Shown here: positions 13,890-20,337 of the stretch, piece by piece
Position numbering within the stretch: position 1 is the first letter of the stretch
Layout of the letters: every line of letters starts with the position of its first letter
IMG/VR virus record: IMGVR_UViG_2663762992_000005
Strand: one strand, 5' to 3'
Source of the DNA: a virus
Taxonomy: Duplodnaviria; Heunggongvirae; Uroviricota; Caudoviricetes
Length of the DNA stretch: 27,542 bases
The notes under the pieces: generated by a model
What the model was told of the DNA's origin: nothing
The model's database searches: none
Seen by the model: the letters and a program-made list of their open reading frames with translations, nothing else
Position numbers and translations under genes: made by a program

Positions 13890-14267
13890 TTATTTTTTGT
13901 CTTTAAAATAATAGCCAATTATAAACCCAAGAGATGTTCCTAACGCACTAACCATAATAGATAACACCTTATCTAACTCAAGTAGTGCGATACTTTTAGA
14001 AGCCTCCATGAGCCCTTTGCTTTGTAATTGAAGTACCCATTGCACTGCGCAATAGTTATAAACTATCACAAATATAAAAGAAAAAACGATAAGACCAAAA
14101 AAGCCTCTCATAAATGTTATGGTTAATGTACTCCTTGTTTTACCATCACGAAGAAATTGAGCCTGAATTTCATTTTCAATCTCTCCTGTTTCCTTCTCTA
14201 TTCTTTTATCTTCAAATCTTAACGCATTAACTTTAGATAACAAAGCCTGAATATCTTCCGTAGCCAT
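13890..14267 (-). CDS. Hypothetical membrane protein (coiled-coil N-terminus, two C-terminal TM helices)
   Basis: 125 aa; strongly AT-rich codon usage; ATG at 14265-14267 preceded by GGAGGGG located in the end of the upstream gene. Confidence 0.55.
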   Translation of the reverse strand: MATEDIQALLSKVNALRFEDKRIEKETGEIENEIQAQFLRDGKTRSTLTITFMRGFFGLIVFSFIFVIVYNYCAVQWVLQLQSKGLMEASKSIALLELDKVLSIMVSALGTSLGFIIGYYFKDKK

Positions 14268-14269
14268 TA

Positions 14270-14539
14270 TTACCCCTCCGACCTAAGCTCTGCTAATTTA
14301 TCGAGGGCATTAATGTATTTAGCATGTGCCTTATGATAATTGGCAATTGCTTTGAGCGACTCATTAATATCTTCAGAAAATGATGAATAAAATTCATATG
14401 GATCCTTACCAGCATAGTCAGGTAAGTTCGTTATGATTTTTTGTATTAAAACAATATTTTTATCCGTAAGTTCACCTGTAGCATCTCTGAATTCAAATAA
14501 ATTTTGAACTATAGCATCTATTTTTTTTACATTCGACAT
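14270..14539 (-). CDS. Hypothetical small acidic protein
   Basis: 89 aa, AT-rich, first gene of a two-gene unit with its own promoter. Confidence 0.55.
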   Translation of the reverse strand: MSNVKKIDAIVQNLFEFRDATGELTDKNIVLIQKIITNLPDYAGKDPYEFYSSFSEDINESLKAIANYHKAHAKYINALDKLAELRSEG

Positions 14540-14604: not shown

Positions 14605-15284
14605 CTTATCATACCATTGATAACACTTTTTTGAACCAGTCAGCTATGAGTGGCCCATCAAAGGATTTAGAGGTTCGATTCATCAGTGTTATCCAATTTA
14701 TCTTGACATCAATAGGGTAAACGGTTATGACTAAAACTACATGACTATCGCGTAGGCAATTCGGACAAAGGTGATTATCAAGCTTAGAAATGAAGGTACG
14801 TTTATATCCCACCAAATACCGTAACCACATTCATGGCGACTTTTTCAGTTCTGCGTTGATGCCAGACGTTGAGTTTGAGCCCCTCGTAATAGCCTAAACA
14901 GTCAGTAGTAGTCCGCAGACATCCTAGTGGGATAAGAAATCATATAGTTTTTTAATTTTCCGTCGCAAAGTAAAATCCCCAGGCGCAAACGGTTTACCCT
15001 AGCTAACTACTGTCACAGCATTCCCCTGAATGCCTGCTGCAATGCTCACTTAGTAGTGTTGAAGTCCTACCCCTTAAGCGATAAATCGGTAAAATTGAAA
15101 CTAAGGCTTCAATGATGTGACATAGAGACGGCGGTCCAATTCTATCAGTTTACCGATCAAAGCGACTACAAACTCCTTTTTTTTAATCTCATTCGATACT
15201 TCATATCGTTGAAGGAGTGTAGACTCAGGTCGTTGTGCATTGTGTAATTCATTTTCAATTTCTTTTAATGTATGGAGTAGAGTC

Positions 15285-15941
15285 ATGGGAATTCTCACTT
15301 TCGATATCACTTGCCCACATTGTCTGAGGGAAAATGCTGTCCTTGAAGGATGGGCAGAACTGCGTATCAACGCCGGGCCTTTAGTTAATATTGCATTTTG
15401 TTGTCGAAGCTGTTTTCAATCAGGTATTGCTATTGTAAAAATGAATAATCCCGGTGGTTATTTACCTCGTGCAAAATCTAGGCAAAATAATGATGTAAAC
15501 GTAATCATTCCTGGAAATACTGAGTACCAGTTGATTGATATCATCCCGAAACCCACCCTCCTTAACGCCCCCGAACACACTCCGCCACGTGCTGCTATGG
15601 CTTTCATAGAAGCAAAAGACAACTTAGGGCGCTGTCGTTTCGACACATCCGTTATGCTTTGCCGTAAAGTCTTGGACATTGCTACACGGGAGTTACTGGG
15701 AAATGACTCAAAAGATGAAAAATTGGTTAAACGGATTTCTATGTTGCATGCTAAGGGACTGATTACAGATCAAATGAGGGAATGGGCACATATAGTTCGA
15801 ATCGATTCCAATGGAGCAGTTCATTCTGATGAAGAATTTTCAAAAGAAGATGCTCAAGAAATGATTGGTTTCACCGAAGTATTTCTTCTATATGCCTTCA
15901 CATTGCCTGATATGGTAGACAACAAAAAACAAAATCAATAA
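15285..15941 (+). CDS. Zinc-ribbon protein with DUF4145/HEPN-like C-terminal domain; candidate abortive-infection or defence protein
   Basis: ATG at 15285 with GGAG 7 nt upstream. N-terminal CPHC and CCRSC cysteine pairs; C-terminal R-x7-H motif (VRIDSNGAVH) in a helical region, as I recall for DUF4145. AT-rich and opposite in strand to the surrounding phage genes. Confidence 0.55.
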   Translation: MGILTFDITCPHCLRENAVLEGWAELRINAGPLVNIAFCCRSCFQSGIAIVKMNNPGGYLPRAKSRQNNDVNVIIPGNTEYQLIDIIPKPTLLNAPEHTPPRAAMAFIEAKDNLGRCRFDTSVMLCRKVLDIATRELLGNDSKDEKLVKRISMLHAKGLITDQMREWAHIVRIDSNGAVHSDEEFSKEDAQEMIGFTEVFLLYAFTLPDMVDNKKQNQ

Positions 15942-16353: not shown

Positions 16354-16968
16354 TCACACCAGTGCAGCTTTAGCTTTGGCGTAACGTTCACGGCGGTCTT
16401 TAATGCCGTTCTGTCCGCCGTTAATAATCTGCGTAACGCGTGCCACGTCACCCGAATACATCAGGCAACCGCGTAACGTGAAGTACCACGCAGCCGAACG
16501 AGCCGCATGTCGCTCTTGCGTTAGCAATTCTGGCGTACTGATAAGGTCAAGTTTCAGCGCCGTGCCGCATTTGGTGTAGTTCTCACGACCCGTGATTTGC
16601 AGCAGGCCGCGACCGCGATATTTCCAGCCGTCACCCTGGCTGTTATTCCCCATGCGGTCACCATAAACCAGATTGGCTATTTGCGGCTGGTGGGCCACCT
16701 GCTTACCATCGACACGACCCAGCATTTCACACTGATAAGGAGTAAGCCGTTTACCAAAGGTTTTCTTCAGCCCCTCTACCGAGTAGTTGAAGCTTTCCAC
16801 CAGCGAGGTAAAGCCAGCAGACTCATGCCCAACCTGGGCGATGAACATAGCCAGATCGTTCGTAGCTGTAATGCCAAACTCTTTCATTGCCGCGTCAATG
16901 TGCGGAAACCAGCGCGCAGAAAGCCCGGCGCTGATACCAGCCGCCTGCTGAAATTGTGATTGGTTCAT
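16354..16968 (-). CDS. Endolysin, glycoside hydrolase family 19 (chitinase-like lysozyme)
   Basis: Motifs FIAQVGHESAGF and YRGRGLLQITGRENY resemble the GH19 signature; ATG overlaps the upstream stop (TAATG). Confidence 0.8.
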   Translation of the reverse strand: MNQSQFQQAAGISAGLSARWFPHIDAAMKEFGITATNDLAMFIAQVGHESAGFTSLVESFNYSVEGLKKTFGKRLTPYQCEMLGRVDGKQVAHQPQIANLVYGDRMGNNSQGDGWKYRGRGLLQITGRENYTKCGTALKLDLISTPELLTQERHAARSAAWYFTLRGCLMYSGDVARVTQIINGGQNGIKDRRERYAKAKAALV

Positions 16969-17249
16969 TAGTGCCTCAGATGATCAACCAGACGTGCCAC
17001 GTTGCCTCTTACGGCGACCAGCACGGACAGGAAAATAAAGTTGGCCCCGATAGTGGCCCATGATGAGTACGGGTAAATACCGCACAGATACGCCAGCGGA
17101 ACGGCGCTGTAGATGACCGTAAGCAGCCACGCTAAGCGAGATATCCACGGTCGATGTCGCGAGTCGCCGCGACGGTAAAACATCAGGGTTAACACTACCC
17201 CAGCACAAAGCAATGCATTAAAAGTTGCCGATGGGTCATTTTGTACCAC
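16968..17249 (-). CDS. Holin-like / antiholin-like small membrane protein
   Basis: 93 aa with two or three TM segments; GTG start at 17247-17249 preceded by GGGGAGG at 6-nt spacing; sits between the holin and the endolysin. Confidence 0.5.
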   Translation of the reverse strand: MVQNDPSATFNALLCAGVVLTLMFYRRGDSRHRPWISRLAWLLTVIYSAVPLAYLCGIYPYSSWATIGANFIFLSVLVAVRGNVARLVDHLRH

Positions 17250-17622
17250 CTGAACCTCCCCGGCGCGTTATCAGCGCCACCAGCGAGCCGACATCCTGAT
17301 TATTCAGGAATGTCAGGATTTTGACGGCTAAAGCAGAAACGATTACGGCGCCAATGGCATCCAGTGGTTTATCACTGTAGCCGGTAGCCTGAGCCAGCTT
17401 TGAACCCACCAGCCCGGAACAAAGGATCCCCGCGATATACGACACCAGAAAATATGCCAGTCGGCGCGCTGCACTTAGATCCGCTGCGGTTGCAATGTAA
17501 AATACAGCCCCGGCAAATGCGCCAAACACCACGCCGTAATCGGTTCCGGATAGAAATCCATAGACGCTGGCCCCCGTCAGGACACCACCAGCCATCCCAG
17601 AACCGGAAATCGGATCGGACAT
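17236..17622 (-). CDS. Holin
   Basis: 128 aa with three predicted TM segments and a charged C-terminus; ATG at 17620-17622 preceded by GAGGGGGG; first gene of the lysis cassette. Confidence 0.6.
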   Translation of the reverse strand: MSDPISGSGMAGGVLTGASVYGFLSGTDYGVVFGAFAGAVFYIATAADLSAARRLAYFLVSYIAGILCSGLVGSKLAQATGYSDKPLDAIGAVIVSALAVKILTFLNNQDVGSLVALITRRGGSGGTK

Positions 17623-17672
17623 TTAGCCCCCCTCTTTGTTGCTGTGAGTCCTCTCAGAATGAGGGGAAATGA

Positions 17673-17700
17673 TTGATTTTATACATTAAAATATTACAAT
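17673..17700 (+). promoter_or_regulatory. Sigma70-like promoter for the plus-strand membrane protein
   Basis: TTGATT (17673-17678), 16-bp spacer, TACAAT (17695-17700), 30 nt upstream of the ATG at 17730. Confidence 0.35.
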
Positions 17701-17729
17701 ATATTTTTGACCAACTTTTGAAGAATACA

Positions 17730-18392
17730 ATGGACTCGAATACCTTAACCATTATAGGAACATTTATTGTTGCCATAATAAGCGGATTACTGGCTTATTC
17801 ATCTTCTCTTTCTGCAAAGGAAAAAGAGGTCAAATTATCCGCATATGAAAAACTCGGACTTGATATACATGCCAATCTTGAAAAGCTTTACAATAATACA
17901 GAATGGCTTTTACTGATTTTTCAACACAAGAATACATTAAACCGCGGAGATTTAATTATTGCCAACAAACAAGTTTCTCTAGACGTTGACAAACTCAGAG
18001 AACTTAGCATAAGAATGAGATTTTTTGATAATGCTTGCTATAAGAAATATGAATCTGTAGTTCAATCGCATGGTAATTTAATACCACAAATACTTGGTTA
18101 TACTCGGCATCCACATGAAACCCCAAGAGATGCTTCAGAACTTTACTCTCGAGAAGAAACACAGGAATTTATAAATAAATTATCCATACTAAAAGATGAA
18201 ATAAATAGCACTAAGATCCATATAACGAACAAAATAGCCAAGGAATATAACAAAGCCCTATCATCTTCAAGGAAAGTTACAGTGCTAGCTTTCATAGTAT
18301 TATTTACTGCATTTATAGCATTTATAATTTTCCCTTTGAAAGAGCAGTCACCTTCGCCCGCAAAAGAAAAAGTCATGCTGCTCTCTTCATAA
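17730..18392 (+). CDS. Hypothetical membrane protein with N- and C-terminal TM helices
   Basis: 220 aa from the ATG at 17730 (the track ORF starts at an upstream TTG); AT-rich; transcribed opposite to the late operon. Confidence 0.5.
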   Translation: MDSNTLTIIGTFIVAIISGLLAYSSSLSAKEKEVKLSAYEKLGLDIHANLEKLYNNTEWLLLIFQHKNTLNRGDLIIANKQVSLDVDKLRELSIRMRFFDNACYKKYESVVQSHGNLIPQILGYTRHPHETPRDASELYSREETQEFINKLSILKDEINSTKIHITNKIAKEYNKALSSSRKVTVLAFIVLFTAFIAFIIFPLKEQSPSPAKEKVMLLSS

Positions 18393-18611
18393 AAACTCGC
18401 ATTTTAGGCTGATTTTTATGCACCTGTGCAGGTAAGAACGATTACTAATTTAGCCTCACCTCCGATAGTTCGTATGGCGCTGTGGTTGATGGAGGGGGGG
18501 GCTGGCTTATGCGCTATTATGAAAATGTGAAGATAAGTATAATTTGCGAAACCTGAAATTATAAAAGACTTCCATTTGGAAGCCTTTAAAATAGCAGCAA
18601 GCGACTCATTG

Positions 18612-19463
18612 TTATTTTGTAGGTTTAGGACCTAACGTGAATTTTGATTTAGTTCCTTTTCGCAACCGTCTAACATCAGGAAAAAGTTCTACTAATCTAT
18701 CTGTACACTTAGTCAAGGATTCAGTACAAATAATCATCCCCATAATCATATAGCCAAAGTCATAGTTGTTAAAACAACCAGTTCCTCTTCCGTTTGGCTC
18801 CATTTTATAATATGACATAGGTAGTATATGCGTATAATGAGATAAAAAATCGAACATTATTTTAAATGACTTTGGATCTTTTCCCAGTTTAACCAATAAC
18901 TCATCTCGATTTGGAATCATAAGCGCTTTTCCAGTCAAGCAACGTTTTCTGGTTCCTTGTTCAAGGGATAAAAAAACAGGGTTGTTATTAAGTCTCTCAG
19001 TTATTATATCTTTTTGTTCATGATAAAAATCCAATGCTTTCGTATTATCACTAGATGTAAATAACTCAATTCTCTTTACACAATCATTCATGTGCATGAC
19101 ATTCAACTTTGCTGACCACTCCTCAGTTGAATCTGGATTCTCAGATAAATACATAAACAATAACTCAGCTTCCAGAATCGCTCTTACATGAGGTGCAATC
19201 GCCGAAAAATCCCAAAAGTCATAATCCCGCTTAGCCCATCTTGATTTTGGTACGTTGGAAATCATTATTGAAGCATGAATGCAGATTCGTGAAAAAATGT
19301 ATGTAGACCACCCTTTAAAAGCCTCAGCCATTCGCACACCAACCCCCTGACTTACAGCATTCGCTTCACATACAGCTTTATCAAACTCCCTTAAGTAGTG
19401 ATGGAAGTCATCCATCGAAAAATCGTTTCGTTCAAGTGGATTTTCGGGATTATCTATTTTCAT
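18612..19463 (-). CDS. Hypothetical protein (orphan, AT-rich)
   Basis: 283-aa ORF between the tR'-like terminator and the holin; followed by its own hairpin plus T-run near 18565-18584. Confidence 0.55.
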   Translation of the reverse strand: MKIDNPENPLERNDFSMDDFHHYLREFDKAVCEANAVSQGVGVRMAEAFKGWSTYIFSRICIHASIMISNVPKSRWAKRDYDFWDFSAIAPHVRAILEAELLFMYLSENPDSTEEWSAKLNVMHMNDCVKRIELFTSSDNTKALDFYHEQKDIITERLNNNPVFLSLEQGTRKRCLTGKALMIPNRDELLVKLGKDPKSFKIMFDFLSHYTHILPMSYYKMEPNGRGTGCFNNYDFGYMIMGMIICTESLTKCTDRLVELFPDVRRLRKGTKSKFTLGPKPTK

Positions 19464-19510
19464 ACTTCACCTATTTAAAACAATTGGTTTAAATCGGTGA
19501 ATTATAACGC

Positions 19511-19534
19511 AAAAACCCGCTCATTGGCGGGTTT
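19511..19534 (-). terminator. Intrinsic terminator downstream of the Q-like gene (tR'-like)
   Basis: Minus-strand hairpin CCCGC-CAATGA-GCGGG followed by TTTTT, about 95 nt after the Q-like stop. Confidence 0.5.
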
Positions 19535-19626
19535 ATAAAACTTTGGCAACATATCAAATACGCTTCAAATATGGCTTATTTTGTTGCATTTTGCAAGCGC
19601 GTTTGAAGGAGATAGTGAAATTTACT

Positions 19627-20337
19627 TCACATTTCTGCCACTTTGAGGGCTTCTTCTTCCTCATAGTATTCAAGAGCCATTGCCAACGCAGATTCATCAA
19701 GCTGGGTAAAAGCGGCCTTTAACCCAGCCCAGTGCCCTGAATAGACACGCAACCATGTCGAACGATCAACGCTAACCATGCGGGCCAACGCTGCACCAGC
19801 ATAGTCTTTATAGGTTTCATTATTTCTGGTTGCGGCAATTTCCTGCCCTGCCAGCCATACCAGGCCAATCAGTTTCTTTACTACGCGCTCCTGAAGGGAA
19901 TTATCACCCAGGCATTTCTGATAAGTTTTCCAGACGTATTCACACATCATCACTTGGTGCTTATAGCTAAGGTCAAAACCGTAGCAGTACCGCAACCAGG
20001 CCTGCTGGTATCCACTAAGCGCGGACACTGCCCTACGCCACGGCGCGGACTCAAATTCCGCATCTTTTATCGGCGGCATTGGCCTGCAGCGGCTGCGTGT
20101 TTCCAGTACATACAATGGCGCGGAAAGCGAGTTAACAAAGCGAGGCCCCTTCTCTCCTTCGAGTTCGACGAGATGAATTCCACGGCGCGGGGTGGCATTT
20201 TTGTCTGCTGGTGGGTGTTCACTGAAAGCCTCAAGCTGCCCTTTTGTTCCCCCAGAGAGGTCAGGTAGCGCGCGGCGCAATTCTATTCTTACAAAATTCA
20301 GGTCTTGTTGATTCATGCTTCTTTGCGCTCCATACAC
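19627..20337 (-). CDS. Putative late-gene antiterminator (Q-like)
   Basis: Call is by position: immediately upstream of a terminator and the lysis genes, downstream of nin-region-like genes. A likelier ATG start is at 20314-20316. Confidence 0.45.
   Translation of the reverse strand: MYGAQRSMNQQDLNFVRIELRRALPDLSGGTKGQLEAFSEHPPADKNATPRRGIHLVELEGEKGPRFVNSLSAPLYVLETRSRCRPMPPIKDAEFESAPWRRAVSALSGYQQAWLRYCYGFDLSYKHQVMMCEYVWKTYQKCLGDNSLQERVVKKLIGLVWLAGQEIAATRNNETYKDYAGAALARMVSVDRSTWLRVYSGHWAGLKAAFTQLDESALAMALEYYEEEEALKVAEM

Follow-up and report, generated by a model that had tools for sequence, protein, structure and literature searches.

The lambda bor gene and the porin genes lc of PA-2 and nmpC of DLP12 are lambdoid morons located in or near the lysis region, and prophage morons adjacent to lysis cassettes have been proven to supply functions in exclusion, defence, and virulence. 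In Stx phages, the interval between the antiterminator gene Q and the lysis genes is filled by the stx genes (PMC6266700, PMC7547250), and the late promoter of these phages is constitutive but its transcription is terminated at tR' in lysogens (PMC7547250). In phage P22, the moron sieA is located in the late region, is expressed from its own promoter, and codes for a small inner-membrane protein; three sieA types less than 30% identical to each other occupy one fixed site (PMC10883804).

The window analysed here, a stretch of 27,542 nucleotides, is a lambdoid prophage whose genes are for the most part read from the minus strand, and it harbors on the plus strand, next to a holin gene, a gene for a protein with two predicted transmembrane (TM) helices, referred to below as the two-TM gene. 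Like the lambdoid morons, it is cargo of foreign composition at the junction of Q, late leader, and lysis genes, where it keeps a fixed position and leaves the late operon undisrupted. The products are unrelated, a toxin for stx, a lipoprotein for bor, and a porin for lc and nmpC as compared to a helical inner-membrane protein here, and whereas stx has the orientation of the late promoter and is expressed from it, the two-TM gene is antisense to this promoter and has a promoter-like site of its own. Similarity to P22 SieA includes the small inner-membrane product encoded by a prophage, the separate promoter, putative in the window, and the moron location in the late region (PMC10883804), and as with sieA, sequence types less than 30% identical are found at one genomic position. 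In contrast, SieA proteins have 162-164 amino acids, are predicted to contain three TM helices, and lack a four-helix bundle, the sieA gene adjoins the tailspike gene instead of the holin gene, and no sequence similarity between SieA and the two-TM protein was detected (no PHROG match at E <= 0.1); exclusion by the two-TM protein is putative.

An open reading frame called mechanically at this place extends from a TTG codon at 17673 to 18392 on the plus strand and would encode 239 amino acids. However, all 17 homologue clusters (46-61% identity, lengths of 219-222 amino acids) begin at the methionine encoded by ATG 17730, and a purine-rich stretch resembling a Shine-Dalgarno sequence precedes the start ATG in all loci examined, including this one. 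The coding sequence is thus assigned to 17730..18392 including the stop codon, with a product of 220 amino acids. This is the length given in the original prediction, whose start coordinate of 17673 has to be moved to 17730; the proposed -35 hexamer begins at position 17673, and the TTG found there merely opens the mechanical reading frame.

Kyte-Doolittle windows exceed 1.6 only at residues 3-29 and 179-207, and both segments are helical in an AlphaFold2 model obtained with an 18-sequence alignment (pLDDT 82, pTM 0.66), in agreement with the predicted single TM helix at each end of the protein. In this model helices comprise residues 3-66, 72-79, 86-99, 101-122, and 141-204, the first of them continuing from TM1 into the soluble part and the last one continuing into TM2, and the protein is confidently modelled as a four-helix bundle with a TM helix at each end, which also bears out the helical middle expected beforehand. 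TM1 (residues 5-27, 17742..17810) is the most conserved segment, with an invariant stretch V14-L20 in the homologue alignment and a small-residue motif formed by A15, S18, G19, and A22. The predicted central bundle (residues 28-182, 17811..18275) carries the conserved juxtamembrane motifs S-x-KEKE-x-KL and Y-x-K-x-x-SSS-K, TM2 (residues 183-203, 18276..18338) is hydrophobic and variable in sequence, and the C-terminal tail of 17 residues (18339..18389) is disordered in the model, with pLDDT values below 50 for residues 206-220, and ends in a conserved KEKVxLL. The fraction of majority residues amounts to 94% in TM1, 88% in the 24 residues that follow, and 61% in TM2, and judged by this conservation TM1 looks like an interaction surface and TM2 looks like an anchor. 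The membrane location is predicted from the two hydrophobic helices. When Lys and Arg residues were counted in the 15 residues flanking the two TM helices in 22 family members, 161 were found on the side of the bundle and 65 on the side of the termini, and the N-terminal tail of these members contains an acidic residue and almost no Lys or Arg. According to the positive-inside rule, these counts suggest that the bundle is cytoplasmic and that both termini are periplasmic, which is the reverse of the topology of bacterial sensor modules.

A word-indexed search of 5.8 billion proteins yielded 18 clusters, all from Enterobacterales (E. coli, Citrobacter, Enterobacter, Lelliottia, and Kosakonia). 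When 1.84 billion representatives were searched exhaustively with a profile, 15 matches were obtained, ten of which are full-length relatives at 20-42% identity with the same architecture, the others being P0005 and four shorter proteins. The ten distant relatives share the motifs S-x-KEKE-x-KL in the juxtamembrane region and Y-x-K-x-x-SSS-K ahead of TM2, and members of the family retain their length, architecture, and motifs even at about 20% identity. All sources label these proteins as hypothetical, except for an automatic '4HB MCP domain' label on one Kosakonia member. The two-TM protein had no match in Pfam, PHROGs (E <= 0.1), NCBIfam, or PADLOC, and none in a sequence profile search of the PDB, and a Pfam scan of all 22 family members produced scattered chance matches only. 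A known structural or lysis protein, the finding that would have spoken against the original prediction, therefore did not appear in Pfam, PHROGs, NCBIfam, or the PDB, and to this extent the prediction survives. The scan with defence models that had been proposed along with it was negative for the window protein and its relatives P0025 and P0032 in PADLOC, and for P0029 gave only a chance-level match to ShosA (E 0.011); as matches in PADLOC, PHROGs, Pfam, and NCBIfam are lacking, there is no homology to a known exclusion or abortive infection (Abi) protein. The 50,697 phage and 72,556 plasmid records searched with tblastn contained no match, nor did a literature search with the protein accession yield one, and a pattern scan of GTDB species genomes returned 68 pattern matches of which 0 were confirmed. 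Of 5,426 complete E. coli genomes compared by megablast, none contained the cargo and 190 matched its flanks only. The family is a new and small one of Enterobacterales, unannotated in every library searched, and it is of a familiar kind, a membrane protein encoded by a prophage moron; its architecture is unusual, with a bundle anchored at both ends and a nearly invariant TM1, and it has remained in one slot across deep divergence.

The gene is AT-rich, as had been noted originally: its GC content is 0.33-0.35 over 17600-18400, whereas Q and the holin/endolysin block have values of 0.52-0.56, and it lies in an island of 33-38% GC within a lambdoid prophage of 52-56% GC. Six viral contigs from IMG/VR show the same difference, with 31-34% GC for the gene and 48-52% for the locus, and the composition is thus unlike that of the surrounding phage genes, as in a moron. 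Pairwise dN/dS values of 0.07-0.18 for orthologue pairs with more than 60% identity indicate that the two-TM gene is under purifying selection, and it is a real, conserved, and uncharacterised prophage cargo gene.

The exact protein is encoded in E. coli prophages, and among the matches listed, 4 of 8 loci are located beside icd and all 8 carry the same neighbouring gene for a DUF5677-like protein. In all other prophage copies that could be placed (L009, L011, L012, L015-L017, L021-L027, and L029, with 59% to 21% identity to the window protein), the two-TM gene stands by itself on the opposite strand, flanked by an antiterminator gene and by the gene for a holin of the Phage_holin_8 family; the holin flank of L009 is a degraded remnant, and L030, a contig of 2.5 kb, covers the antiterminator side only. 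Around the two-TM gene, the antiterminator belongs to one of three Pfam families (PF06323, PF06530/DUF1133, and PF03589) and the endolysin to one of three types (GH19, Phage_lysozyme, and GH108). In L012 the holin is 96% identical to that of the window while the two-TM protein is 52% identical, and in L025 the respective values are 86% and 39%; given the fixed slot and this gap in identities, the cassette is locked in its position yet diverges independently of its neighbours. In the E. coli prophage KSC64 (L014 3114-3899), the same slot between Q and the holin gene contains a different gene on the late strand, coding for a hypothetical protein of 262 amino acids (WP_000275196.1), and at least 14 other genomes share the slot span of 1,086 bp of KSC64. 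As this related prophage shares the flanking Q and holin genes but differs in the gene between them, the slot is considered a cargo site. Close relatives thus fill it differently, as is evident from the 190 genomes with flanks only, from KSC64, and from the presence of the DUF5677 gene in the E. coli version alone. Two homologues, the most distant of all (E 7e-10 and 3e-4), were found outside prophages, in mobile islands (L028 1-4361; L031 2017-5444 and 15503-16795). P0029 is encoded in an island that bears an integrase gene together with genes for a DNA methylase, a nuclease of the Mrr type (Mrr_cat), Hha, and Hcp, and P0032 is encoded beside a Hachiman pair (HamA and a helicase of 843 amino acids), a KAP NTPase, and genes of the ICE type. 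The apparent association with defence genes comes from these two remote homologues.

The original prediction had also assigned a promoter to the gene, and a -35-like hexamer TTGATT (17673..17678) and, 16 nt after it, a -10-like hexamer TACAAT (17695..17700) are indeed present on the plus strand and match 9 of 12 positions. This says little when taken alone, because a promoter scan detected 11 comparable sites in the region and 7.6 +/- 2.8 in shuffled versions of this AT-rich DNA. What strengthens the assignment is that about 14 orthologous loci have a promoter-like site at the equivalent position. The window shares with seven of these loci a -35-like hexamer just past a conserved hairpin of the holin leader; it is invariably TTGATT in the window, L009, L011, L012, L015, L016, and L021, and TTGCAT in L017. 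A -10-like hexamer (TACAAT, GATATT, or GATAGT) follows at 16-17 nt in six of these eight loci, the corresponding hexamer is weak in L011 and L021 (TGAAAC), and five further loci have a perfect TATAAT at the equivalent place. At the other end of the gene, in other genera, a canonical bidirectional terminator (AAAAAACCCGC...GCGGGTTTTT) is located directly 3' of the two-TM stop codon. It is present at this place in L009, L011, and L012 and is degraded in the window, where alignment identifies a decayed remnant at 18393..18425 on the plus strand with a weak fold only (-8.5 kcal/mol, z -0.05), so that the window has no strong terminator after the two-TM gene.

On the minus strand, Q (19627..20337) was identified by matches to PF06323 (E 3.7e-36) and phrog_304 (E 2e-71). 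Just downstream of it an intrinsic terminator resembling tR' (19511..19534, minus strand; AAACCCGC-CAATGA-GCGGGTTT+TT) has a folding energy of -13.4 kcal/mol (z -1.8), and its homologue in L011 directly adjoins the two-TM gene. A candidate late promoter, TTGCAA-17-CATATT (19568..19596, minus strand), was read from the sequence; it is weak and below the threshold of the promoter scan. Candidate promoter and terminator after Q would correspond to the expected PR'-tR' layout, with the position of the late promoter being only inferred. Its placement by homology to the PR'-6S-tR' region of lambda was rejected, since matches of 12-13 nt only were found, which is too weak.

The predicted location between Q and the holin gene holds on the holin side, which the two-TM gene adjoins; from Q it is separated by a gene for a DUF5677-like protein of 283 amino acids (18612..19463, minus strand), an AT-rich, separate piece of cargo that is co-oriented with late transcription and is followed by a hairpin with a T-run (18564-18587). 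The match of this protein to DUF5677 is weak (Pfam E 2e-4, below the cut-off), and it matches neither PADLOC nor PHROG models. Homologues with 41-99% identity, several of them labelled DUF5677, occur in Enterobacterales, Vibrio, Shewanella, Photobacterium, and Pseudomonas. As the intact homologue of the terminator is now located upstream of the DUF5677 gene, this gene would seem to be a later insertion that separated the terminator from the two-TM gene. A two-gene system formed by both was rejected, because the neighbour is absent beside the two-TM gene in all other genera, and it is also disfavoured by the much wider family to which the neighbour belongs.

The orientation against the late strand was predicted correctly, with the two-TM gene on the plus strand and Q and the holin gene on the minus strand. 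In the lineage of L029 and L027, which has an antiterminator of 120 amino acids (PF06530), a terminator that borders directly on the Q stop codon also overlaps the stop codon of the two-TM gene, and a second minus-strand terminator, located between the two-TM gene and the holin gene, adjoins a 13-nt identity to lambda 6S RNA (TGGTCACTTCGAC; L029 2563-2727 and 3400-3430, L027 5795-6001). Here the cassette may lie inside, or even upstream of, the late leader. Because of this terminator layout the antisense relation is possibly not universal in the family; it is plausible for this window and is not established for the family as a whole.

On its other side the two-TM gene is divergent from the gene for the Phage_holin_8 holin (17236..17622, minus strand; PF16931, E 5.6e-34), with the two start codons 107 nt apart. 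The lysis block continues with a second holin of the Phage_holin_3_7 family (16968..17249) and an endolysin of the GH19 type (16354..16968), both recognized by family matches, and with putative spanin-like reading frames after the endolysin. The left edge of the cassette is marked by a conserved hairpin in the 5' leader of the holin gene (17650..17666, minus strand). Within this leader (17623-17668, minus strand), the CCCCUC tract of a conserved element can pair either with the adjacent GAGAGG, forming a hairpin, or with the Shine-Dalgarno sequence GAGGGGGG of the holin gene, and the element is kept in most of the orthologous loci compared. As the fold is no better than that of shuffled sequences (z -0.6), the element is only a possible translational switch. 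An Rfam scan of 17000-20000 produced sub-threshold chance matches only.

We tentatively favor the explanation that the two-TM gene is a classical moron and that its product is a membrane protein expressed in the lysogen for exclusion or abortive infection. The cassette would consist of the promoter, the coding sequence for 220 amino acids, and an originally bidirectional terminator, and would sit between the holin gene and the region of the late terminator; its predicted product would be an inner-membrane protein, a four-helix bundle tied to the membrane at both ends. In the lysogen, transcription of the two-TM gene would start at a sigma-70 promoter within the cassette, and transcripts from the late promoter would end at tR'. 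After induction, Q-modified polymerase would cross about 1.9 kb via the DUF5677 gene and, antisense, through the two-TM gene to reach the holin gene, and because of this antisense reading the cassette should then be silenced. The almost invariant TM1 and the juxtamembrane segment most likely act on a conserved membrane partner, and the purpose might be either to keep other phages out by a block of DNA entry, as in the case of P22 SieA, or to kill infected cells via the membrane. Presumed expression in the lysogen and not in the lytic state, foreign composition, fast divergence within one slot, conservation of a TM interface, and remote relatives in islands of the defence type would fit an anti-phage membrane function of benefit to the lysogen. 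The original prediction is partly supported: an independent, AT-rich cargo cassette with a conserved promoter-like site, a membrane protein under purifying selection, and an orientation against the late operon agree with it, and the remote homologues in mobile DNA resembling defence islands were counted in its favour, whereas for its putative exclusion or Abi function homology in PADLOC or PHROG is absent. If the two-TM protein blocks phages, it would be a new single-gene membrane defence; as it stands, the two-TM gene is a well-supported but ordinary 'hypothetical moron'.

Lysogenic conversion without phage defence is an unlikely explanation, though one that deserves consideration: as a copy of a TM/four-helix-bundle/TM sensor devoid of output, the protein might alter envelope signalling or stress tolerance of the host, for example by mixing with sensor kinases or chemoreceptors. 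The predicted four-helix bundle between two TM helices does resemble the sensor modules of NarQ, QseE, and Tar/Tsr (4HB_MCP_1). However, the fold match from which this proposal derives is generic, as de novo designed helical bundles score equally, and Foldseek searches of BFVD and PDB gave no significant match (best E about 0.04, TM-scores mostly below 0.5). There is no sequence match to these modules, 0 of 22 members matching the 4HB_MCP Pfam model at E <= 1, the positive-inside counts (161 versus 65) place the bundle in the cytoplasm, opposite to sensors, and with only 17 residues after TM2 a cytoplasmic output domain is lacking. A role for the protein itself is what the conservation argues for, and it appears most improbable that the protein is incidental and that the cassette is a selfish or decaying passenger, or acts mainly as a convergent transcription unit, shielding the lethal holin from transcripts that run beyond tR'. 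Such a reading would agree with the convergence of the cassette with late transcription directly upstream of the holin gene, with the decay of the terminator in the window, and with the rarity of the family, which is absent from the phage and plasmid records searched; against it stand the strong purifying selection on the protein and the length, architecture, and motifs retained at about 20% identity.

The unbroken adjacency to Phage_holin_8 would equally fit a role in lysis. Wherever the flank is intact, down to 21-26% identity, the two-TM gene is divergent from the Phage_holin_8 gene at a distance of about 100-200 nt, while antiterminator and endolysin have been swapped, and only a function linked to the holin explains this. 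The two-TM protein might then be an accessory of lysis control that binds the Phage_holin_8 holin or its Phage_holin_3_7 partner, either to guard, like a safety catch, against leaky holin expression in the lysogen or to set the time of lysis in the manner of an antiholin; both the two-TM protein and the holin are membrane proteins, and the nearly invariant TM1 has small-residue packing motifs. This would be a new kind of lysis control, and we regard it as decidedly unlikely, since the opposite strand, the putative separate promoter, and the foreign composition are unlike known lysis regulators, the gene lies off the late strand, and its product matches no holin or antiholin family in Pfam or PHROG. 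Nor does it co-vary with the holin (52% versus 96% identity in L012); the slot contains other cargo in E. coli prophages that have this holin too, from which it follows that the holin works without the two-TM protein, and the distant homologues are encoded in non-phage islands, where none of the called neighbours is a lysis gene. In a further variant, which we consider very unlikely, the protein would be a holin-specific factor of 'anti-lysis immunity' made in the lysogen, whose invariant TM1 binds holins of the Phage_holin_8 type, silences the leaky holin of its own prophage, and traps the progeny of superinfecting relatives; antisense late transcription would switch this factor off when its own phage lyses the cell. 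It would explain why the gene has been retained beside Phage_holin_8 while the other neighbours were exchanged.

Two further observations concern the region beyond the lysis genes. Just past the lysis cassette, a gene on the opposite strand (15240-15941, plus strand) codes for a DUF4145 protein (Pfam E 8e-11, phrog_1305) and occupies what we take to be the position of lambda bor; its weak match to the PADLOC model PD-T7-4 (E 0.0027) makes it a defence candidate itself. A third AT-rich island (13890-14539, minus strand; GC 0.30-0.34) contains reading frames of 89 and 125 amino acids that match phrog_21707 and phrog_20796, both of unknown function, and have no match in PADLOC. The product of 125 amino acids has putative membrane-like hydrophobic stretches, as read by eye from its sequence.
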